Position numbers and translations under genes: made by a program. The notes beneath the pieces were generated by a model. It did not search any database and was not told the DNA's origin. It saw only the letters and a program-made list of their open reading frames with translations. Positions 2,510-39,289 of a stretch of DNA of 39,761 nucleotides are shown here, one piece after another; the stretch's first letter is position 1, and every line of letters begins with the position of its first letter. Source of the stretch: Escherichia phage APC_JM3.2; the sequence record MG197996.1. One strand, given 5' to 3'.

Positions 2510-2926
2510 ATGAAAAAACTAACCTTTGAAATTCGATCTCCAGCACATCAGCAGAACGCTATTCACGCAGTACAGCAAATCCTTCCAGACCCAATCAAAC
2601 CAATCGTAGTAACCATTCAGGAACGCAACCGCAGCATTCGGCAAAATGCACGCCTTCACGCGATGCTATCTGAAATAAGTAAGAAGGCTACATATCATGG
2701 AAAAGCAAGAAATATTGAGTTTTGGAAGGGGTTATTCGTTTCTGGTTGGCAGATTGCAACCAACCAGCACCCTGAGATTATATCAGGGTTAGAAGGTGAG
2801 CTAATAAACATCAGAGAGAGTACGGCGACTCTATCTGTAAAAAAAATATCCGAAATAATGGACTACATAGAAGCATATTGTGCCATGAACTCAATTCATC
2901 TTAGCGAATGGAGGAATTATGATTGA
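2510..2926 (+). CDS. ninB: NinB recombination protein (C-terminus replaced relative to lambda NinB)
   Basis: MKKLTFEIRSPAHQQNAIHAVQQILPD... matches lambda NinB N-terminus as recalled; GGGAGAGGGAAG RBS before ATG 2510. Confidence 0.85.
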   Translation: MKKLTFEIRSPAHQQNAIHAVQQILPDPIKPIVVTIQERNRSIRQNARLHAMLSEISKKATYHGKARNIEFWKGLFVSGWQIATNQHPEIISGLEGELINIRESTATLSVKKISEIMDYIEAYCAMNSIHLSEWRNYD

Positions 2927-3521
2927 GGTTTGGGTAGATATCGAAGGGATTCCATTTTATCAGGTTAGCAATAAAGGAAATTTCAGGTCTATTACGAGGG
3001 AAGTTACAGTAACATCAACCAGACAGAGGCCATATAAGAAAATAATTAATGGCACTAGCGTAAAACCATTCAAGTGCAAGTCGACAGGATATCTTCAAAT
3101 AAAGGTATACGGTAAGAAATACAGCGCCCACAGGATAGTTGCGAAAGCATTCTGTACAGGGTTCTGTGATGGCTTGGTAGTTAATCACAAAAATGGGCAA
3201 AGAGATGACAATAGGGCTGAAAACCTTGAATGGGTATCACATTCTGAAAACTCAAAGCACGGATATAAACAAAATGGAAGAATACCTATATCGCTAGGTA
3301 AATTTAGTGGTGATCATCCTGCCAGTAAAGCTGTTATTTCTACTGACATGAAAACTGGTGAGGAGGTTTATTATGAAGCAGCTATGGATGCTGTCAGAGA
3401 AGGATTTGATAGTTCGTCAATTAGTCGTTGCTGTAATGGCGAAAGCTCATATCACAAAGGAAGATTCTGGCGATTTGCAAATGAAACAATGAAAGCGAGA
3501 TGGGGAGATCGGGCTGCATGA
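2919..3521 (+). CDS. HNH homing endonuclease (NUMOD4-like N-terminus plus HNH motif)
   Basis: 200-aa ORF with strong GGAGG RBS; motif VNHKNGQRDDNRAENLEWVSHSEN; ORF terminates in KARWGDRAA, the recalled lambda NinB C-terminus. Confidence 0.8.
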   Translation: MIEVWVDIEGIPFYQVSNKGNFRSITREVTVTSTRQRPYKKIINGTSVKPFKCKSTGYLQIKVYGKKYSAHRIVAKAFCTGFCDGLVVNHKNGQRDDNRAENLEWVSHSENSKHGYKQNGRIPISLGKFSGDHPASKAVISTDMKTGEEVYYEAAMDAVREGFDSSSISRCCNGESSYHKGRFWRFANETMKARWGDRAA

Positions 3522-27216: not shown

Positions 27217-27484
27217 TGATGCAGCCATGGATGGCTACATGAATGGGTGGTGCTTGTTTACGAAGTAAACCAGAAGCACAAACGCGACGATGTTAATTGC
27301 AACTACAATTTTGCTATTCATCAGTGACCCCTATAGGTAGGTAAAGTTAGAGTCTCATTGATTTCCATGTACATTCAAGTCTCCATGGTCTTGCGTGTCT
27401 ATCATTCAGTCTTACACTCGTACTTCTACCACTCAAAAAATTCCCTATACGCATTCGCCTGCTTAGCAAAAGCATACTCCATTC

Positions 27485-27532
27485 TTGTTGAACTCCGCCA
27501 CCTACAAATAATTACTGTATGTGCATGCAGCG
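27485..27532 (+). promoter_or_regulatory. Candidate sigma70 promoter with overlapping LexA-like (SOS) box upstream of the UmuD'-like gene
   Basis: -35 TTGTTG 27485-27490, 17-nt spacer, -10 ATAATT 27508-27513; TACTGTATGTGCATGCAG 27513-27530 has CTG-N10-CAG and a perfect TACTGTAT left half. Confidence 0.4.
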
Positions 27533-27549
27533 ATTATCGGAGGTGCATC

Positions 27550-27846
27550 ATGGGATTCCCCAGTCCTGCACAAGACTGCATAGAGGAGCACATATCGATC
27601 GACAAGCGCATCATATCGAGGCCAGTGGCTACCTACTTCATGAAAACGGGGGCAACACACTACCGGGAAGGCATCCTAAGTGGCGCTCTCTTTGCCGTTG
27701 ATGCATCTTTGAACCCATGTGATGGCTCATTGCTGGTTTGTGCAACTGATGGTGAGTTCAGAATTAAGCGTTACCTGACATACCCGCAACCGCATCTGGA
27801 AAATCTGGATAACGGAAAGAGGGAGAGGATTCCTGACAAGAATTAG
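27550..27846 (+). CDS. UmuD'-like (peptidase S24 fold) protein lacking the catalytic serine, C-terminally shortened
   Basis: 98-aa ORF, GGAGGT RBS 7 nt upstream; MGFPSPAQDCIEE..PVATYF..DGEFRIKRY aligns by eye to E. coli UmuD from Gly25 (the UmuD' N-terminus); GDSM serine site replaced by ATHY. Confidence 0.65.
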   Translation: MGFPSPAQDCIEEHISIDKRIISRPVATYFMKTGATHYREGILSGALFAVDASLNPCDGSLLVCATDGEFRIKRYLTYPQPHLENLDNGKRERIPDKN

Positions 27847-32453: not shown

Positions 32454-33041
32454 TCAGAAAGGAGGGTAATCGTTCTGGCTGTAACCATAATCATCTACAT
32501 GATTCTGGCTTACGTTTTTAGAGCGATTGTCTTTATCTTTGAGATTGGCAACCATGTTGGCGATAGTTTCTGGTTGCTTGCCTTCTGCCTTTTCTTTAAG
32601 GGTTTGACCTGTTTGTGCAATAAACGGGATGCGTATTTCCATCTGGTAGCTGTCTGCGCCAGTCTTTTTGTTTGTGGTTAATACTTTCTGGAGCACTAAC
32701 CCGATTTTCTTTCCATGAAACTCAGGAGCAACAAATTTACTGATGGAAACCATATGTTGCGTTAATTGTCCAATCCCGGCACACCCCATCATGGCGTGAA
32801 CGACATTTGCGCCAAATTTGTTTTCCGTTCCGTCATTTTTCTGAACACAGACGCTAAGATATTGGATTTTACGTCCGTCGTCGGATTCGCCAGAAAACTC
32901 AATAAATTTGGCTCCTTTTTCTGATTGCTTTAGTTCTGCTTCAGTAATGGTAATGATATGAGCGCCAGTTTCGTTAATAAAACCACCTTGCCCTGCGGTC
33001 AGTGCTGCTTCTTCGTTATAAGTAAAAATCACGTTGCTCAT
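32454..33041 (-). CDS. Putative single-strand DNA-binding partner of Sak4 (DUF669-like)
   Basis: 195-aa ORF translationally coupled (ATGA) to Sak4; gene-neighbourhood logic. Confidence 0.5.
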   Translation of the reverse strand: MSNVIFTYNEEAALTAGQGGFINETGAHIITITEAELKQSEKGAKFIEFSGESDDGRKIQYLSVCVQKNDGTENKFGANVVHAMMGCAGIGQLTQHMVSISKFVAPEFHGKKIGLVLQKVLTTNKKTGADSYQMEIRIPFIAQTGQTLKEKAEGKQPETIANMVANLKDKDNRSKNVSQNHVDDYGYSQNDYPPF

Positions 33042-33718
33042 GCGGCGTTTTCCTTAATTTGATGAACATTATTGATGCCGTAGTAATCACAAACAGTGGC
33101 ATCGACAAAAGAGAGATCGTTATCAATCTCATTGGAATCAAACATTCCCATTGGGGATTTAACAGTGTCTGCACCGTTGTTTTTCGTGGTGAAAAAGAAC
33201 TGGTCATCACGGGTAAGGGTGCGAAGAACTATAGTAAACATGCCTTCAACAGTGATTTTCTCGTCCAGCATTTTGCCGATAGTCTTCATTTTCACACGCC
33301 CCATAGGGGTTTCTTCGGTATGGGCAAGAAAATAGACTCTCAGGTCATCAGGCGCATCCTGTGCAGCCTTAATGACCTCCCATGCGTGACGGCCTATCTC
33401 AGTGAATTTATCAAACGATTTTTCTTCTGAGCGGCGCATAAACTCATTGCTCATCACATACTGGAAGTCATCAACAATAACGATTCTTTTCCCGTATTCG
33501 TGAGCACGCTTAATTACGGCAACTATTACGTCCCATTTGTCAGTGGTAACTACGGTTCCTTTTTTTGCTCTGGCATCCCATGCAAGCCAGTCTTTTGATT
33601 TAAATGGTAGCGGCTTGCCTATTGGTTTTATAAGTATTGCTTCCTCTGGATTGATATTTCTCATGCTGGTTGATTTTCCGGTGCCAGACTCACCGAGTAT
33701 TAATGTCGCAGTTCCCAT
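33038..33718 (-). CDS. sak4: Sak4-type RecA-like recombinase (AAA_24 ATPase)
   Basis: 226-aa ORF; Walker A GESGTGKST near N-terminus, Walker B RIVIVDD; size and layout typical of Sak4. Confidence 0.8.
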   Translation of the reverse strand: MGTATLILGESGTGKSTSMRNINPEEAILIKPIGKPLPFKSKDWLAWDARAKKGTVVTTDKWDVIVAVIKRAHEYGKRIVIVDDFQYVMSNEFMRRSEEKSFDKFTEIGRHAWEVIKAAQDAPDDLRVYFLAHTEETPMGRVKMKTIGKMLDEKITVEGMFTIVLRTLTRDDQFFFTTKNNGADTVKSPMGMFDSNEIDNDLSFVDATVCDYYGINNVHQIKENAA

Positions 33719-34188: not shown

Positions 34189-35157
34189 TTAGTAGGTTAT
34201 TTTTGTTGCGAATACTTCGCCTTTTACGATGGCTGTTATGATATTTTTAGCAACATCTTCTGATGCACCAACCTTGATAAGGTCAGCAAGTATTTTGTTA
34301 TTTACTTCTTTCCGGTGAGCTTTATCCTTTGCTCTACGCTCTTCTTCGTCCTTGATTCTTTTTTCTTCTGCGATTCTGGCTTGCTCTTTTGCTTCAGCCT
34401 CGCGCCGGATTCGTTCAGCCTCCTCCTGTGCTTTTCGGCGTTCTGCTTCAATTGCCGCCTGCTTTTCTCTTTCAGCTCGTTCTGCTGCCTCTTTTGCTTC
34501 GCGCTGTGCTCGTTGCTCGGCCTCAATGCGTTCACGCTCTGCACGTTCCGCTGCGGCCTTAGCTTCTGCTTCTCGCCTTGCTGCTGCTTCAATTTCGGCT
34601 TTTGCCTTTGCTTCGGCTTCTGCTCTGGCTTTCTCTTCAGCTTCTCTTTTTAATCGTTCTTCATGCTCTCGCTTTTCCTGCTCCGCTTTGAGTCTTGCCT
34701 CTTCTCTTTGGCGGTCAAATTCGCGATCCATCAAAATCGCTATTTCATGGTCAGACTCAATTTGCTTTGCGAGAGCTTCAGCTGCTGCCTTAGCTTCTTC
34801 TTCGGCTTTAATCCGCGCCTGTTCTTCCTCATAATCAGTAAGAGGCTGGCGCGCCTTGGCTTTCAGTTCATCAAGGCGATCGCGCACTGTCTTGCGGTTG
34901 GCATCAATTAGCTTTGGAATTTCCTTCAGTTCAGCAACAAGGTCTTTGCCAAGACCATCGAGATATGTTTTCGTCTGCGCAACTTTATACGCCAGAGAAG
35001 CGATCTCCTTTCTGCCCTTTGCCGTTGTGATATCAGGCACAAAGGACATAACTTCACGTTCAACCTTTTGAAGGATTTCTTCAATCTGGTCGGCAGACTG
35101 AAATACAGTCATTGCATTTGCTTTTTCAATAACAACTAAATCTGTTACTTCACTCAT
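34189..35157 (-). CDS. ER/K-rich coiled-coil protein (322 aa) with long charged low-complexity helix
   Basis: AAGGAGGA RBS 4-5 nt upstream; central 130 aa almost entirely E/A/K/R (..REAEEKARAEAEAKAKAEIEAAARREAEAKAAAERAERERIEAEQRAQREAKE..). Confidence 0.7.
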   Translation of the reverse strand: MSEVTDLVVIEKANAMTVFQSADQIEEILQKVEREVMSFVPDITTAKGRKEIASLAYKVAQTKTYLDGLGKDLVAELKEIPKLIDANRKTVRDRLDELKAKARQPLTDYEEEQARIKAEEEAKAAAEALAKQIESDHEIAILMDREFDRQREEARLKAEQEKREHEERLKREAEEKARAEAEAKAKAEIEAAARREAEAKAAAERAERERIEAEQRAQREAKEAAERAEREKQAAIEAERRKAQEEAERIRREAEAKEQARIAEEKRIKDEEERRAKDKAHRKEVNNKILADLIKVGASEDVAKNIITAIVKGEVFATKITY

Positions 35158-35191: not shown

Positions 35192-35560
35192 TCAGGCGGC
35201 TTTGATAGTCATATCATCTGAATCAAATATTCCAGATGTGTCGATATCGGTAATTCTTATTCCTTCGCTACCATCCATTGGAGGCCATCCTTCCTGACCA
35301 TTTCCATCATTCCAGTCGAACTCACACACAACACCATATGCATTTAAGTCGCTTGAAATTGCTATAAGCAGAGCATGTTGCGCCAGCATGATTAATACAG
35401 CATTTAATACAGAGCCGTGTTTATTGAGTCGGTATTCAGAGTCTGACCAGAAATTATTAATCTGGTGAAGTTTTTCCTCTGTCATTACGTCATGGTCGAT
35501 TTCAATTTCTATTGATGCTTTCCAGTCGTAATCAATGATGTATTTTTTGATGTTTGACAT
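35192..35560 (-). CDS. Strongly acidic hypothetical protein (122 aa)
   Basis: GAGGAT RBS; estimated net charge about -17 (D+E about 25, K+R about 8); first gene after a terminator. Confidence 0.6.
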   Translation of the reverse strand: MSNIKKYIIDYDWKASIEIEIDHDVMTEEKLHQINNFWSDSEYRLNKHGSVLNAVLIMLAQHALLIAISSDLNAYGVVCEFDWNDGNGQEGWPPMDGSEGIRITDIDTSGIFDSDDMTIKAA

Positions 35561-35580: not shown

Positions 35581-35606
35581 AAAAAATCGCCCTCACATTG
35601 GAGGGC
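35581..35606 (-). terminator. Intrinsic terminator on minus strand upstream of the acidic 122-aa gene
   Basis: Minus-strand RNA GCCCUC-CAAUGU-GAGGGCG followed by AUUUUUUAU. Confidence 0.55.
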
Positions 35607-35699
35607 AAAGAAGATTTCCAATAATCAGAACAAGTCGGCTCCTGTTTAGTTACGAGCGACATTGCTCACATAGCAGACTCGTAAATCTGCTATAGGCGC

Positions 35700-35858
35700 T
35701 TATTCGCATCGCATGACAACATCAAATTTTTCGAGATTACTTTGTCGCAACAATCCTTCTTCTACGCGGTCAGCTTTTCTATAATTATCAAATTCGAAAT
35801 GTTTAATTACTTCTTTCGTTTCTCGCTCTATAACTTCAACGATGTATTTCTTATTCAT
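35700..35858 (-). CDS. Small hypothetical protein (52 aa)
   Basis: Hand-translated MNKKYIVEVIERETKEVIKHFEFDNYRKADRVEEGLLRQSNLEKFDVVMRCE; start overlaps upstream stop. Confidence 0.4.
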   Translation of the reverse strand: MNKKYIVEVIERETKEVIKHFEFDNYRKADRVEEGLLRQSNLEKFDVVMRCE

Positions 35859-36154
35859 TACTCATCACCTATGGCTTTTCTGATTGCTGCGAGACCTTTA
35901 TTAACAGCTCCATACCATTCTGGATATGTTGTCGTTGTTCTATTTTTGGATTGCTTAAGTAATAACTGAAGTGCTTCGAGAAGGTCAGGTGCTGCCGCTA
36001 TTAGATTGGCATCTTCAATGCATTGAACTTCCTCACAGATTGCAATATACGAACGCCAGCCTGTGCCATTTTCAAGAGAGTCTGCCTGGATGATTTTAAT
36101 CTCATCGCCATCCATCATTATTTCCCACTTACCTTCAGTACCTTTAAATTCCAT
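35858..36154 (-). CDS. Acidic hypothetical protein (98 aa)
   Basis: AGAGG RBS; contains ..ANLIAAAPDLLEALQLL.. motif. Confidence 0.6.
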   Translation of the reverse strand: MEFKGTEGKWEIMMDGDEIKIIQADSLENGTGWRSYIAICEEVQCIEDANLIAAAPDLLEALQLLLKQSKNRTTTTYPEWYGAVNKGLAAIRKAIGDE

Positions 36155-36174
36155 GTTAGCCTCTGTTGTTTATG

Positions 36175-36202
36175 CCAAAAATAAAGGCCGACTATGCGGC
36201 CT
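36175..36202 (-). terminator. Intrinsic terminator on minus strand after the 212-aa gene (stop codon in loop)
   Basis: Minus-strand RNA AGGCCG-CAUAGU-CGGCCU followed by UUAUUUUUGG; TAG stop lies in the loop. Confidence 0.55.
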
Positions 36203-36815
36203 CGGAAGGAAGTCCAATCATCTTATTCAAATCTTCTACCCGTAAAGCAGGAAGTGCTGTACTTGCTTTATCTGCTTCTTTTGGTAGCAACTCTTTGCTT
36301 TCAGGCCAAACCTCAATAAGTCGCTTAACTGTTGTGACTGAGTTTAAAGCAGCCCATACATTTGATTCGATATCCTTTTTCTTAGCTTCAAGTTTTTGTT
36401 GTAATGAGCAGATTTCATCAAACCTTTTTGTTATTTCGTGCTCTGCGTCAAACATGCATTTATCTTTTATCGGAGTAGGGAGAAATATATCTTCGCCGTT
36501 GCCGTCTTTCCCATATGAATGCCATCCAACCCTTCTGTCAGATACAGTCAGATAAATTGAAGTAGAACGAAAATCGTATGAGTAAAATGAACATCCCATC
36601 TTTCCAAGTTCTTCACTTATAGCTACCAACTTGGATGATAACTGATCCACTTCCTCAGTTTTCTTTTTACCGCCAAACGCAATAACTCTGGCGTCAAGTG
36701 CAAGCTGGTTCTTTAACTTTGTTACTTCTTCAAGCTCAGTGAAAACCCCAGACTTAATTAAAGCGTTACGAGCGATTTCCTCTTTCATTCTCGTAGTTAA
36801 GCGGATTGATGACAT
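36192..36815 (-). CDS. Hypothetical protein (207 aa), flanked on both sides by intrinsic terminators
   Basis: Start set at ATG 36815 (MSSIRLTTRMKEEI..) with GAGAGGAA RBS; K/E-rich; no domain recognised. Confidence 0.6.
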   Translation of the reverse strand: MSSIRLTTRMKEEIARNALIKSGVFTELEEVTKLKNQLALDARVIAFGGKKKTEEVDQLSSKLVAISEELGKMGCSFYSYDFRSTSIYLTVSDRRVGWHSYGKDGNGEDIFLPTPIKDKCMFDAEHEITKRFDEICSLQQKLEAKKKDIESNVWAALNSVTTVKRLIEVWPESKELLPKEADKASTALPALRVEDLNKMIGLPSEAA

Positions 36816-36829
36816 ATTAATTCCTCTCA

Positions 36830-36861
36830 AATAAGAAAATAAAGGCCACCATCAGGCAGCC
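36830..36861 (-). terminator. Intrinsic terminator on minus strand after the 83-aa gene (stop codon in loop)
   Basis: Minus-strand RNA GGCUGCC-UGAU-GGUGGCC (two G-U pairs, so strand-specific) followed by UUUAUUUUCUUAUUU. Confidence 0.5.
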
Positions 36862-37103
36862 TTGTTGTAAATGTTGCAGGTATCAAGTAAGTAATTAGAT
36901 GGAGCGCCATAAATTATGAATTCATCGTTTGTCGGGTCCATCTCCATCTCTTGGCCTATTGCCATTCTTGCGTCAGTGTCGTCAGCGGCGAAGCATAAAA
37001 CAGCCCACGCACCCATTGTTTTAAAAAGAACTGCAATTGGCTGTGGTTTTACTGAATTTGCGTTAGCGCGAAAATCACAAATCGCACTTTCATGAAATTC
37101 CAT
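36852..37103 (-). CDS. Acidic hypothetical protein (83 aa)
   Basis: AGGTGAT RBS; second gene of the leftward early operon. Confidence 0.6.
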   Translation of the reverse strand: MEFHESAICDFRANANSVKPQPIAVLFKTMGAWAVLCFAADDTDARMAIGQEMEMDPTNDEFIIYGAPSNYLLDTCNIYNKAA

Positions 37104-37165
37104 ATATCACCTAAAATAAGTGGTTTGCTGCCAAAACAATGAACCATCCGGAAATTCCAGATAGT

Positions 37166-37393
37166 TCATAATTCACTCTTCAATACTTCCAGCTTACTAA
37201 TCGCCGAAAGATATCCGCGCTGATAAGGCATCAGCATTCCGTTGAGCTTTTCACTCCTTAACTCCTCTCTAAGCAGGTTAATGGCCTTATCGATAACTTC
37301 TGCCTTAGCGTCCTTTATGGCTTGCTTTCGGGGCTTTGCTTTCTGCTTTGGCAGATTTCTCAAGCATGATGGAATGTATGTCTGATTCATCAC
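37166..37393 (-). CDS. First gene of the leftward early operon (N-equivalent position); basic N-terminus, function unassigned
   Basis: 75-aa ORF, GAGGT RBS; K/R-rich N-terminal segment LRNLPKQKAKPRKQAIKDAK; no similarity to lambda N apparent. Confidence 0.5.
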   Translation of the reverse strand: MMNQTYIPSCLRNLPKQKAKPRKQAIKDAKAEVIDKAINLLREELRSEKLNGMLMPYQRGYLSAISKLEVLKSEL

Positions 37394-37643
37394 TTACCTC
37401 GCTGTAACCTGCTTACTTGTACGATGACCAGCTGCGAAAAGCGCAACTTCTGGCAGGCAGACAGTACCACTCTTCAAATCAGCCTCCTTTTTCTTTTTCT
37501 ATATCAAAAAGCTGCTTTGCTTTTGTGACTAAAAGCAAAAAAGCCTTCTCGCTAATGAGCAGCATTGCCGTTCATCCTGAACCCGCCGCGCTCCCGACGC
37601 ATGGTTTAAAGACGCGCCGTTCGTCTATGGCTTAACTATATCC

Positions 37644-37670: not shown

Positions 37671-37761
37671 AGTTATAAAATAACTCCTTTGGTTATTTAG
37701 TCATTGATATCTAATGTAATTTATTTTTCTTGTATGTGAGATTTGGTGTTTTTTGGGCAAT

Positions 37762-37790
37762 AAAAAACCCGCAAAAAGCGGGTTTGTTGT
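37762..37790 (-). terminator. Intrinsic terminator downstream of cI
   Basis: Stem AAACCCGC / GCGGGTTT with AAAAA loop; on the minus strand it is followed by UUUUUUAUUG, 12 nt after the cI stop. Confidence 0.65.
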
Positions 37791-37802
37791 GGTGTGATGA
37801 GG

Positions 37803-38534
37803 TTAGTAGTCAACTACAGACCACCAGAAGATTCTTCCGATGATCTCGATATCGCTTAGATTCTTTTCTTCTTGTGGGTATTCCAGTGAGTTAAAGCTTC
37901 TAATGCTTACCTTGTCAGGCCCTGATCGAAAGAGAATCTTAATGCGTTTCCAACCGTTCTCGTTAATGGCGTAAATCTTTCCGTCAACTATTTTCTTATC
38001 GTTGGTGTTAACAGCAACTGTTGTTCCATCAGGAATGTTTGGCTCCATGCTGTTGCCACGAGCCGGAAAACAAACAACCCCGCTTCCATCACTGTTCGCG
38101 CCAACTCTGCGAAGGGTTGATTTGGAGAAGCGCAACATAAAGCCGTTGTGATCTTCATCAATCACCCGACCATCCCCGCATGCAAACTCAATATCTTTAA
38201 GGTAAGGAACTTCAACTTCATCACCTCTTAAAGGCGTTCCTCCATCCCATGGGTCCAAATATCCCCACGTGCTTTCATGAGGAATAGAAGATTTTGGATT
38301 ATAAGGTTCAACTCCCTCATCACGCATTGGCCCAGTCCCATCGGAAAGCCATTCCGTACGAACTCCAAGCACTTTTGATATTTCAAAAAGTTTGCGCGTA
38401 TTGCGTGTTTTTCCAGACGTAAGTTTCCAGACGCTTGGCTGAGACATGCCAACAGCATTGCCAAGTGAAGCCTGAGTAAACCCAGCCTGATCCATCGCGT
38501 ATGTAAGCCTTTGAGAAAAAGTATCTAGTTTCAT
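37803..38534 (-). CDS. cI: CI-type prophage repressor (HTH plus S24 autopeptidase domain)
   Basis: 243-aa ORF; N-terminal HTH ..QASLGNAVGMSQPSVWKL..; C-terminal GNSMEP (Ser nucleophile) and ..GWKRIK (Lys) S24 motifs. Confidence 0.9.
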   Translation of the reverse strand: MKLDTFSQRLTYAMDQAGFTQASLGNAVGMSQPSVWKLTSGKTRNTRKLFEISKVLGVRTEWLSDGTGPMRDEGVEPYNPKSSIPHESTWGYLDPWDGGTPLRGDEVEVPYLKDIEFACGDGRVIDEDHNGFMLRFSKSTLRRVGANSDGSGVVCFPARGNSMEPNIPDGTTVAVNTNDKKIVDGKIYAINENGWKRIKILFRSGPDKVSIRSFNSLEYPQEEKNLSDIEIIGRIFWWSVVDY

Positions 38535-38575
38535 TCGGACAACCTATAGCTACAGCTATTATTAGTCAAATACCT

Positions 38576-38602
38576 AAAGCTATTTACTTTCTGAATAGCT
38601 TT
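38576..38602. promoter_or_regulatory. Candidate right operator site overlapping putative pR (-35 TTTACT 38583-38588, -10 TATTAT 38606-38611)
   Basis: Perfect 9-bp inverted repeat AAAGCTATT-N9-AATAGCTTT between cI and cro. Confidence 0.45.
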
Positions 38603-38642
38603 GGCTATTATTCTGATTGTGAATTCAGCAGGAGTTATTTTT

Positions 38643-38873
38643 ATGGTCAACAAGGCTATTAAAGCGGCTATTGACTCAGTAGGAAGTCAGCAAAAGTTAG
38701 CTGATGCCTGCGGTGTTAAGCAGCCGTCTGTATGGGCTTGGTTGCATGGGAAGAAAAGGGTATCCGCTGAAAATGCCAAGCGCATTGAAATGGCTACCAA
38801 TGGAAGCGTCCCTGCATACCTGATTCGCCCTGATTTATCCGCTTTGTTCCCCAATCCGAACAAAGCAGCTTAA
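38643..38873 (+). CDS. cro: Cro-like repressor (HTH)
   Basis: 76-aa ORF from ATG 38643 with AGGAG RBS; ..QQKLADACGVKQPSVWAWLHGKK.. HTH; divergent from cI. Confidence 0.8.
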   Translation: MVNKAIKAAIDSVGSQQKLADACGVKQPSVWAWLHGKKRVSAENAKRIEMATNGSVPAYLIRPDLSALFPNPNKAA

Positions 38874-38992
38874 TAAAGCAAATTTTTATACCGAACGGCC
38901 CGGTATACGGTCGGGTGCCCGGCGTGGTCAAGGATGACTGTCAATGGTGCACGATAAAAACCCAAATTATTTACCTATGGAGATAGTAAGAA

Positions 38993-39289
38993 ATGACACA
39001 AGCAAGCTACAGCAAGCCAACACAGCGAGAAATTGATCGCGCTGAAACTGATTTACTCATCAACCTGTCAACGCTTACCCAGCGCGGTCTGGCAAAGATG
39101 ATTGGCTGTCATGAATCGAAGATAAGCAGAACGGACTGGAGGTTTATTGCTTCGGTCTTGTGTGCTTTTGGAATGGCATCAGACATCAGTCCGATTAGCA
39201 GGGCTTTTAAGTATGCGCTTGATGGACTCACCAATAAAAAACGCCCGGCGGCAACCGAGCGTTCTGAACAAATCCAGATGGAATTTTAA
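38993..39289 (+). CDS. cII: CII transcriptional activator
   Basis: 98-aa ORF; C-terminal ..LTNKKRPAATERSEQIQMEF identical to lambda CII C-terminus as recalled; HTH in the middle. Confidence 0.9.
   Translation: MTQASYSKPTQREIDRAETDLLINLSTLTQRGLAKMIGCHESKISRTDWRFIASVLCAFGMASDISPISRAFKYALDGLTNKKRPAATERSEQIQMEF
39236..39262 (-). terminator. oop-like antisense terminator within the cII 3' end
   Basis: Minus-strand GGUUGCCGCCGGGCGUUUUUUAUUGG, matching the lambda t_oop region as recalled. Confidence 0.45.

Follow-up and report, generated by a model that had tools for sequence, protein, structure and literature searches.

A mosaic accessory slot with an Nmad5-family gene at the head of the pL operon of Escherichia phage APC_JM3.2

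Four small genes at the start of the leftward early operon of Escherichia phage APC_JM3.2 (MG197996.1) raise the question of whether they work together against host defences or competing phages, or merely share a place. A sequence-only reading had proposed the former: a coherent, terminator-insulated cassette or moron with a new anti-defence or superinfection-exclusion function. Here we analysed the locus within the 39,761-nucleotide stretch of phage DNA examined as a whole, hereafter the window. The four ORFs, encoding proteins of 83, 207, 98 and 52 amino acids (aa), are co-oriented on the minus strand exactly where that reading had placed them (Table 1), and the compact layout it described is real, with intergenic spacers 37 and 38 bp long and the stop codon of the 98-aa gene overlapping the 52-aa start as TAATG. 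The acidic label given to the 83-aa and 98-aa proteins agrees with their calculated isoelectric points, and the 207-aa protein contains 33 D+E and 32 K+R residues. Ribosome-binding sites that had been called strong are only moderate (GGTGA, GAGAGG and AGAGG).

The locus is a hypervariable accessory slot with which the leftward early (pL) operon of this temperate, P22-like/lambdoid phage begins. Positions 37803-39289 carry the genes cI, cro and cII, P22-like structural genes are found elsewhere in the window and, past the slot, the operon continues with Ea10, a coiled-coil protein, cIII, Kil, Sak4, SSB and Abc2. Its lambda and P22 counterparts contain ral, sieB and gene 17. The four genes lie between the antitermination determinant and tL2a/ea10, and this position is a point in favour of the cassette. 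The same place in the pL operon is occupied by the lambda N-to-tL2a interval (ral, sieB) and the P22 gene 24-to-c3 interval (ral, gene 17, Y8K6), which likewise hold small, dispensable and swappable early genes with intrinsic terminators between them. Their right-hand boundary is also shared: a tL2a homologue (29/30 nt identical to the annotated tL2a of phage O276) precedes an Ea10 homologue, the equivalents of which bear the name ea10 in the annotations of VT2-Sakai and O276. Related prophages carry Ral, an HNH protein and a Y8K6-family gene in this slot. Unlike lambda and P22, APC_JM3.2 has 75-aa, 83-aa, Nmad5, Y8K6-family and 52-aa genes in place of ral and sieB, and no N gene precedes the interval.

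Table 1. Features of the pL accessory slot and its surroundings (window coordinates).
Feature	Position	Strand	Remarks
putR antiterminator RNA, cro/cII interval	38896-38952	plus	57/57 nt identical to annotated putR of HK022/O276
putL antiterminator RNA, HK022 type	37557-37619	minus	63/63 nt identical to annotated putL of O276/HK022
N gene 3'-end remnant	37394-37477	minus	about 26-27 codons; TTG start; arginine-rich motif absent
75-aa basic protein gene	37166-37393	minus	pI 9.8; phrog_5305; pN/pS 0.16
Terminator-like hairpin 3' of 75-aa gene	37139-37169	minus	14-bp stem; -18.6 kcal/mol, z = -5.8
83-aa acidic protein gene	36852-37103	minus	pI 4.2
Intrinsic terminator over 83-aa stop codon	36842-36863	minus	-13.9 kcal/mol, z = -3.7
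207-aa Nmad5 gene	36192-36815	minus	ATG start; 212 aa if upstream TTG used
Intrinsic terminator over Nmad5 stop codon	36184-36203	minus	-11.0 kcal/mol, z = -2.0
98-aa acidic protein gene	35858-36154	minus	pI 4.5
52-aa protein gene	35700-35858	minus	phrog_6949
Lambda tL2a homologue just upstream of ea10	35587-35608	minus	-12.9 kcal/mol, z = -3.9
Ea10 homologue (DUF2528)	35192-35560	minus	PF10800, E = 1.8e-47; forms the slot's conserved right-hand edge

Antitermination, terminators and promoters

What had been called the N-position gene is not N: its 75-aa product matches phrog_5305 and has no N-family match. A complete N gene is absent from the window, which carries instead a 26-codon remnant behind an HK022-type putL. 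This remnant aligns with the C-terminus (...CSGSICLPNVAIYAAGYRKSKQLTAR) of the full N proteins in loci L081, L025, L061 and L027 and with positions 134-157 of the 176 in the profile of phrog_271, 'anti-termination protein N-like' (E = 1.8e-6). E. coli PD7 and IMG/VR loci have a complete N upstream of the 75-aa gene. A defective prophage had been considered on account of the missing N, and the idea was dropped once putL and putR were found. Both put sequences are 100% identical to those of HK022 and occupy the same positions relative to pL and cro/cII, putL lying just downstream of a pL-like promoter (TTTACA-17-TATAGT at 37663-37635). The putL element was recognised solely through its DNA similarity to HK022; an Rfam search of the pL leader found nothing and the leader as a whole folds with z = 0.16. 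Unlike HK022, where nun follows putL, APC_JM3.2 has the N remnant and the 75-aa gene at this point, and its promoter/operator and cI sequences differ from those of HK022.

Terminator-like sites are frequent in the region (15, versus 6.6 +/- 2.6 in shuffled sequences), and hairpins follow the 83-aa, Nmad5 and 52-aa genes, as the downstream terminator of a moron would. The 207-aa gene is indeed bracketed by two of them (36863-36842 and 36203-36184), which have the 12-nt sequence GGCCTTTATTTT in common; the mEp234 homologue of the first is annotated 'rho-independent terminator'. Insulation is another matter, as these are ordinary, conserved tL-type terminators, all downstream of putL, which should suppress them. 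Since the phage has putL and putR and no N gene, the hairpins are best regarded as tL-type sites at which read-through is expected, and the identity with HK022 leads us to infer that RNA polymerase modified by put RNA would pass them.

Promoter-like sites in the region did not exceed chance (8 versus 12.3 expected, by consensus matching only), and the one coding-strand candidate for an own promoter is weak (36940-36913, 9/12 matches) and lies upstream of a terminator. The four genes thus seem unlike morons that the prophage would express, which argues against superinfection exclusion, a function that needs prophage expression. Nor was a SieB-like membrane segment found: the highest 19-residue hydropathy, 1.68, belongs to residues 22-40 of the 83-aa protein, which include an invariant K28 and, in several homologues, D/E at alignment positions 31-32, and the other three proteins do not exceed 1.1. 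None of the four proteins matched a PADLOC defence-system model at E <= 0.1.

Four independent modules rather than a cassette

The distribution of the genes bears most directly on whether they form a unit. Some part of the region is matched in 2237 of 5426 E. coli genomes, only one of which covers at least 80% of it, and the Nmad5 gene alone is found in 211 E. coli genomes, about 4% of the complete ones. A single recurrence of the whole block, in E. coli WWCOL-236 where a lambda-type N precedes it, speaks for the cassette. The block is found in none of the 80 IMG/VR viral contigs that carry a 94-99% identical Nmad5 gene; these contain the 98-aa gene nine times, the 75-aa gene six times, the 52-aa gene four times and the 83-aa gene not at all. 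The upstream neighbour of Nmad5 is an N, of whichever arginine-motif type, at a 12-bp gap, or Ral at a 37-bp gap, or else the 75-aa gene. The downstream recombinase varies (RecT, Erf, Rad52 or Sak4), and the modules have short shared sequences at their junctions. Because Ral and Nmad5 co-occur, Nmad5 is no substitute for Ral. The ORFs are therefore not conserved as a block (1/5426 genomes, 0/80 contigs), and the four genes are independent mosaic modules, not a cassette. We consider a dedicated exclusion or anti-defence cassette unlikely.

Nor are the proteins new to the databases: all four fall into catalogued phage families (E = 1e-31 to 1e-82), the largest being Nmad5, although an NCBIfam search returned no match for any of them and a family search of the antisense ORFs of the region none either. 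Leftovers of recombination between phages, i.e. some or all of the small ORFs being non-functional, would suit a region that is clearly a recombination hotspot, with its N remnant and shared junctions. Against this stand the family matches, homologues that retain their motifs down to 32-70% identity, and pN/pS values of 0.04-0.25 across the four genes relative to homologous alleles (626 synonymous and 563 non-synonymous differences for Nmad5, and 6-25 differences for each of the other three genes). The 83-aa protein, moreover, is 100% identical across many viable, cultured lambdoid and Stx phages, and we regard this explanation as exceedingly improbable.

The 83-aa protein (phrog_2471, E = 1.4e-61) is identical to VT2-Sakai orf20, mEp234_034 and proteins of HK633 and HK106, and has only 19 database homologues, all from Enterobacteriaceae. 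In both loci inspected (mEp234 and VT2-Sakai) its gene comes directly after the antitermination gene N and has the same terminator behind it as here; the next gene in these two phages, unlike in APC_JM3.2, is not Nmad5. In the window the 83-aa gene takes the junction that ral holds in other phages, with the same 37-bp gap to Nmad5 and the same ...NKAA C-terminus overlapping the terminator, a replacement that also favours a counter-defence cassette. The protein itself is not homologous to Ral (PF11058; hhalign probability 0.2%), a Pfam search gave no match, and its AlphaFold2 model, built on an 11-sequence alignment, is unusable (pLDDT 52). The 83-aa gene thus appears to be a positional alternative to ral.

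The earlier view that none of the four proteins has a recognisable domain fails for the 207-aa protein, a Pfam Nmad5 member, and for the 98-aa protein, whose homologues at 58-96% identity carry precomputed matches to PF27050 (Phage_P22_Y8K6). Through these matches the 98-aa protein (phrog_1273, E = 5.9e-31) very likely belongs to the same family, members of which share the motifs EFKGTxGxW and EDAxLIAAAPDLLEAL and have a swappable C-terminal third; a profile search of solved structures with the family found nothing. The 52-aa protein (phrog_6949, E = 3.2e-40) shows a pN/pS of 0.04, based on few differences, and in the loci fetched its gene lies only downstream of a Y8K6-family gene.

The Nmad5 protein and its relatives

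Pfam Nmad5 (PF18757) matches the 207-aa protein along its entire length, at positions 1-206 of the 206 in the profile (235.6 bits where the cut-off is 27; E = 7.8e-70), and phrog_1965 matches it too. The family owes its name to an association in genomes with enzymes of nucleotide or DNA base modification. The name was reportedly coined in a paper by Iyer et al. of 2013. PGAP calls the homologues 'Nmad5 family putative nucleotide modification protein'. The family comprises 2270 representative clusters, and nearly every one of the 150 that score best is a stand-alone protein some 200 aa long, a typical size that the APC_JM3.2 protein shares together with the invariant WPE...LNxxIGLP module. Its pN/pS is 0.25.

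A confident AlphaFold2 model (pLDDT 85) shows a bundle of three helices, a small beta meander, one long helix and a flexible tail. A fold search with it matched only members of the same family and no known enzyme fold, and a profile search of solved structures found nothing. The residues invariant across the family (A18, L166, W170, L176, P178, L196, N197 and G201) do not look catalytic, and few polar residues are conserved. Conservation is marked in a C-terminal module, TxK[KR]LxExWPE ... LPAxxVxxLNxxIGLP, in which 23 diverse members show little or no variation at W170, P171, E172, L196, N197 and G201. As R43, E172, E175 and N197 are also conserved, alongside a frequent ADH motif, a new catalytic fold may nevertheless be present. 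The C-terminal LNxxIGLP is loosely like beta-clamp-binding motifs (QLxLxL); it was rejected as such a motif, its invariant N and G being off that consensus.

On the reading implied by the name, Nmad5 would belong to a DNA or nucleotide base-modification pathway that shields the phage genome from restriction. Besides the Pfam and PGAP names, this reading can draw on the SN1/M6-like phages, in which Nmad5 lies between aGPT-Pplase1 and a pyrimidine hydroxymethylase in a thymidine-hypermodification cluster (PMC9476957), and on the N4-like phage B2, where it adjoins thymidylate synthase. Its wider surroundings in B2, polymerase, thymidylate synthase, AAA and SSB genes, count for a role in replication. 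Unlike in M6 and SN1, no modification gene lies near Nmad5 in the window and the pL operon encodes no modification enzyme. Among 58 distant loci, 28 of them from one large lineage, 21-24 have the gene order DUF2800/PD-(D/E)XK nuclease, T7-type SSB (DUF2815), Nmad5 and DNA polymerase A. When a single locus was taken from each of 16 lineages, the neighbours were again replication and recombination proteins (PolA, SSB, AAA_24, helicases, RecT, YqaJ, VapE and PriCT_2). A single methylase was among them, and enzymes of hypermodification were absent (no aGPT-Pplase and no 5-hmdU kinase). One distant locus has a GP17-family gene nearby, and a scan of genome contigs with the Nmad5 alignment returned four loci.

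Outside the pL operon, NinC (PAPS_reduct domain) is the sole modification candidate in the window; it was set aside as a partner of Nmad5, being 99% identical to lambda NinC, with lambda not among the Nmad5-matching records. The DefensePredictor paper describes a validated defence system that contains an 'NMAD' domain; it was likewise discarded as evidence on Nmad5, the domain in question being Nmad2. With these neighbours, the absence of a known enzyme fold and the few conserved polar residues, we hold a modification role to be quite improbable. Neighbourhood and fold together make Nmad5 more likely a replication or recombination accessory protein than a modification enzyme, and the family name probably misdescribes its role. 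The same neighbours argue against the cassette.

A link to host defence comes from the Dhillonvirus phage SM_A8, in which the substitution K216E in Nmad5 allows escape from Tmn (PMC11846954), a result that favours an anti-defence reading. The substituted residue aligns with R165 of the APC_JM3.2 protein, a conserved basic residue in a conserved helix. In the same study deletion of nmad5 did not yield escape (PMC11846954), so an inhibitor role of wild-type Nmad5 does not follow, and this counts against the cassette. The comparison is also a distant one, as the Dhillonvirus protein is about 33% identical to that of APC_JM3.2, over the C-terminal half only, and its gene stands alone and oppositely oriented among head genes, unlike the early pL gene in the window. 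Such a placement is not readily explained by either role, replication or modification.

Proposed roles and meaning

Taken as a whole, the account that we favour, with a probability of roughly 0.55, is that of a pL accessory slot filled with mosaic modules, put-dependent read-through, an Nmad5 adaptor and small proteins that bind host factors. On this account, put-RNA-modified RNA polymerase would pass the tL-type terminators, and the four genes would be expressed solely in the delayed-early phase, in lytic growth or on induction, the repressed prophage being silent for them. Nmad5 would most likely serve the replication or recombination of phage DNA as an accessory or adaptor protein without enzymatic activity, and its conserved C-terminal module may bind a partner common to many phages, either a host protein or DNA. 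Host defences might be able to sense this module, as the Tmn-escape position maps there. The 83-aa, 98-aa and 52-aa products, on this account dispensable early proteins that are small and acidic, would most plausibly bind host factors, in takeover or in counter-defence; the small size and acidity of two of the proteins had also been consistent with the cassette. A bolder version, which we think doubtful, has Nmad5 as a mislabelled, widespread and non-enzymatic replisome or recombination adaptor that places its invariant LNxxIGLP, beyond a flexible linker, on a conserved hub of host DNA metabolism watched by defences such as Tmn, with the 83-aa protein as a functional but non-homologous analogue of Ral.

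Had the cassette reading been right, the locus would have been a new counter-defence module. What the region shows instead is lambdoid phages shuffling single early genes at short shared junctions. Nmad5, with more than 2000 sequence clusters and a genetic tie to the Tmn defence, is worth flagging, and the VT2-Sakai orf20 protein, unchanged in many Shiga-toxin phages and lying in the slot of ral, is a cheap and testable counter-defence candidate.

Gene content and mosaic inheritance

The window represents a P22-like/lambdoid temperate phage, and the four genes lie at the start of its leftward early operon. All four ORFs called by the sequence-only reading were recovered where it had placed them, on the minus strand, and each matched a phage protein family with an E-value within 1e-31 to 1e-82; no family match was found for opposite-strand ORFs of the region. 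Against homologous alleles from the fetched loci, pN/pS was 0.13 for the 83-aa gene, 0.25 for Nmad5 (the 207-aa gene product), 0.21 for the 98-aa gene and 0.04 for the 52-aa gene, the Nmad5 value being based on 626 synonymous and 563 non-synonymous differences and the other three on few. That the ORFs are recombination junk is extremely unlikely in view of this conservation and purifying selection.

Coordinates of the features in the window
Feature	Position	Strand	Remarks
HNH endonuclease	2919-3521	+	NUMOD4 motif
Peptidase_S24 protein	27358-27846	+	162 aa, LexA/UmuD-like
Recombination module	32454-33718	-	Sak4-like AAA_24, phage SSB (phrog_743), then Abc2
322-aa gene	34189-35157	-	coiled-coil-like
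Ea10	35192-35560		DUF2528
Hairpin after 52-aa gene	35608-35587		terminator-like
52-aa ORF	35700-35858	-	phrog_6949; start overlaps 98-aa stop (TAATG)
98-aa ORF	35858-36154	-	phrog_1273; pI 4.5
Hairpin after 207-aa gene	36203-36184		terminator-like
207-aa ORF (Nmad5)	36192-36815	-	phrog_1965; from the ATG used by homologues; 33 acidic, 32 basic residues
Hairpin after 83-aa gene	36863-36842		terminator-like
83-aa ORF	36852-37103	-	phrog_2471; pI 4.2
Hairpin after 75-aa gene	37169-37139		terminator-like
75-aa gene	37166-37393	-	phrog_5305, function unknown
N remnant	37394-37477	-	last 26 codons of an N gene
pL-leader hairpin	37505-37545	-	-12.9 kcal/mol
putL	37557-37619	-	63/63 bases identical to HK022
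cI	37803-38534
cro	38601-38873
putR	38896-38952	+	57/57 bases identical to HK022
cII	38993-39289

Downstream of the four genes, the leftward operon continues with Ea10, a 322-aa coiled-coil protein, cIII, Kil, a Sak4-like annealase, SSB and the anti-RecBCD protein Abc2. The 322-aa protein has a long E/A/K/R-rich centre and no Pfam match was found for it; its gene is an independent module that recurs directly downstream of Nmad5 in many loci. Elsewhere the window contains a Pfam-confirmed integrase and ORFs that fit P22-like portal, coat and tailspike genes in size (assigned by length only). The Peptidase_S24 protein is encoded between the integrase gene and the tailspike-sized ORF, which is 664 aa long. 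In the nin region, NinB and NinC flank the HNH endonuclease gene, a probable homing-endonuclease insertion.

The four genes had been proposed to form a terminator-insulated cassette with an undescribed anti-defence or exclusion function, and synteny comparison showed no conservation of the four as a block. At least partial matches to the 1851-bp region were found in 2237 of 5426 complete E. coli genomes; coverage reached 80% or more in a single one, WWCOL-236, where the same four genes lie behind a lambda-type N; the Nmad5 gene alone was found in 211. Among the 80 IMG/VR contigs in which Nmad5 was 94-99% identical, the 83-aa gene was present in none, the 98-aa gene in nine, the 52-aa gene in four and the 75-aa gene in six. 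Directly upstream of Nmad5 lies N, the anti-restriction gene ral or the 75-aa gene. The arginine-rich motif of N may be of any type (that of lambda, P22, phage 21 or others) and the gap is always 12 bp; ral, found there in about a dozen loci, leaves a gap of 37 bp. The downstream side is just as variable, with RecT, Erf, Rad52 or Sak4 as the more distal recombinase. None of the four proteins matched PADLOC defence models or NCBIfam, and promoter-like sites in the region (8) were below the shuffle mean (12.3). We read the region as a mosaic accessory slot, not a cassette (probability about 0.85); synteny and promoter data both speak against a coherent anti-defence or exclusion cassette, which we consider unlikely.

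Terminators and antitermination

The 207-aa gene is indeed bracketed by terminator-like hairpins, and others follow the 75-aa and 52-aa genes. All four fold as predicted (-11 to -18.6 kcal/mol), and the region has more terminator-like sites (15) than shuffled sequences (6.6 +/- 2.6). In phage O276, a feature with 29/30 identity to the 52-aa-gene hairpin is annotated as lambda tL2a and likewise lies just upstream of ea10; the 83-aa-gene hairpin carries a rho-independent terminator annotation in mEp234. Both Nmad5-flanking hairpins share the 12-nt direct repeat GGCCTTTATTTT (36836-36847 and 36178-36189), although an exact repeat of this length within 2 kb has a chance probability of about 0.1 and is only mildly unlikely. 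Each of them also overlaps the stop codon of a protein with an ...AA end, an arrangement seen at the ral/Nmad5 junction too. These repeats and ...AA ends look like short shared junctions where modules are exchanged, and rather than insulating one special gene the hairpins are best read as ordinary terminators at shared module boundaries.

Ends of the ...KAA or ...EAA type occur in the 83-aa protein, Nmad5, Ea10 and Cro (stop codons at 36852, 36192, 35192 and 38871), and in Ral in relatives; the stop codon lies inside a terminator stem in at least the 83-aa and Nmad5 genes. Sub-threshold Rfam matches to Yfr1, Trp_leader and isrK at 37759-37840 (minus strand), all on the strong terminator hairpin after cI, were taken as chance hairpin matches.

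The 75-aa gene directly upstream of the four had been described as the N-position gene; it is not N, and elsewhere it sits 3' of a complete N (E. coli PD7 and several viral contigs). In the window it is preceded by an N remnant, which has a TTG start behind a good Shine-Dalgarno sequence (AAGGAGG) and a stop overlapping the 75-aa gene start, and which matches the C-terminal part of the 'anti-termination protein N-like' profile (E = 1.8e-6). The pL leader upstream of the remnant is 99% identical to that of HK022 and contains putL, an HK022-type antiterminator RNA; its counterpart putR lies between cro and cII. Rfam gave no match at either site. The putL/remnant/75-aa junction recurs with full coverage in at least one further E. 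coli genome, PEC122, and for the most part in S56 and ET729. No N or nun gene is present in the phage. In HK022 the put RNAs work in cis, through RNA polymerase, and suppress downstream terminators without N. Since putL and putR are exact, the phage is probably not N-defective and its antitermination is predicted to be RNA-mediated; put-modified polymerase would read through the hairpins of the region, which would make the four genes delayed-early products of lytic development only.

The put RNAs are common to HK022 and the window phage base for base, whereas cI and the operator region differ; here, these sites sit in a phage with P22-like-looking structural genes. Just downstream of putL, an A/U-rich hairpin followed by a U run, in a stretch common to HK022, might be a terminator on which putL acts.

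Nmad5

The 207-aa protein matches Nmad5 (PF18757) over its full length (235.6 bits), and its AlphaFold2 model is confident (pLDDT 85). In the model, residues 8-72 form a three-helix bundle, followed by a small beta meander, a long helix (127-158) and short helices; residues 183-191 are a disordered linker that leads to a short terminal helix. With 2270 representative clusters at E <= 1e-3 the family is large, and nearly all of the best-scoring 150 clusters are stand-alone proteins of about 200 aa. The residues invariant across diverse members (A18, L166, W170, L176, P178, L196, N197 and G201) build a C-terminal module, TxK[KR]LxExWPE...LPAxxVxxLNxxIGLP, and do not look like a catalytic constellation. 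No solved structure was matched by the profiles of the two families searched, Nmad5 and that of the 98-aa protein.

Of 58 viral loci from distant phages, which fall into 17 lineages at 70% identity, 21-24 had the order of a 300-aa protein, a DUF2800/PD-(D/E)XK nuclease, a DUF2815 single-stranded-DNA-binding protein of T7 gp2.5 type (PMC5686142), Nmad5 and DNA polymerase A. A census of one locus per lineage (16 lineages) found as neighbours DNA_pol_A (3), DUF2800, DUF2815 SSB, AAA_24 and helicases (2 each), and VapE, RecT, YqaJ, DUF3799, DUF669, PriCT_2 and a DNA methylase (1 each), with no thymidine-hypermodification enzyme; the AAA_24 neighbours of two distant lineages recall the Sak4-like module of the window. 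In the N4-like phage B2 the neighbours are a polymerase, thymidylate synthase, an annotated AAA-domain protein and SSB, and in Dhillonvirus Nmad5 stands alone among head genes, in the opposite orientation. The enzyme aGPT-Pplase adjoins Nmad5 only in SN1/M6-like phages (PMC9476957), and the family name probably reflects a minority context. The pL operon of the window contains no modification enzyme; its NinC (PAPS-reductase-like) is 99% identical to that of lambda, a phage absent from the records matching Nmad5. As partner enzymes are missing here and in most lineages and there is no enzyme fold, a base-modification factor is improbable. Nmad5 could instead be, as a tentative assignment, a non-enzymatic protein that serves replication or recombination as an accessory or adaptor, and whose C-terminal module would act on a partner common to many phages, either a host factor or DNA.

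A single substitution in Dhillonvirus nmad5 (K216E in SM_A8) confers escape from the defence system Tmn, deletion of the gene gives no escape, and cloning of the wild-type gene did not succeed, apparently owing to its toxicity (PMC11846954). K216 aligns to R165 of the window protein, which lies in the conserved helix preceding WPE and adjoins the invariant residue L166. This position marks the C-terminal module as a functionally sensitive surface and does not show an anti-defence role of wild-type Nmad5.

The small acidic proteins

The 83-aa protein is 100% identical in HK633, HK106, mEp234, VT2-Sakai (orf20), phage 2851 and other Stx phages, and is narrowly distributed (19 database homologues, all Enterobacteriaceae). 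In mEp234 and VT2-Sakai, the two loci inspected, its gene directly follows N. It sits at the junction where other phages have ral; the protein is unrelated to Ral (hhalign probability 0.2%) and may be a positional alternative to it. Residues 22-40 are borderline hydrophobic, with an invariant lysine and, in several homologues, acidic residues there; this stretch is not read as a membrane helix. The AlphaFold2 model failed (pLDDT 52).

The 98-aa protein very probably belongs to Phage_P22_Y8K6. It has conserved motifs EFKGTxGxW and EDAxLIAAAPDLLEAL, and its C-terminal third is mosaic in its own right. Salmonella P22-like prophages have the order N, sometimes Ral, an HNH protein, Y8K6 and cIII, and among the fetched loci the 52-aa gene occurs only downstream of a Y8K6-family gene. 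The three small acidic proteins may bind host factors.

Public phage genomes and family libraries already contain every part of the region, several of them at 95-100% identity, and the antitermination system is that of HK022; the feature is therefore already known, the functions of its four proteins being putative. The small additions made here are the probable origin of the name Nmad5 in a minority context and the placing of the Tmn-escape residue on the conserved Nmad5 module and of VT2-Sakai orf20 in the ral slot.
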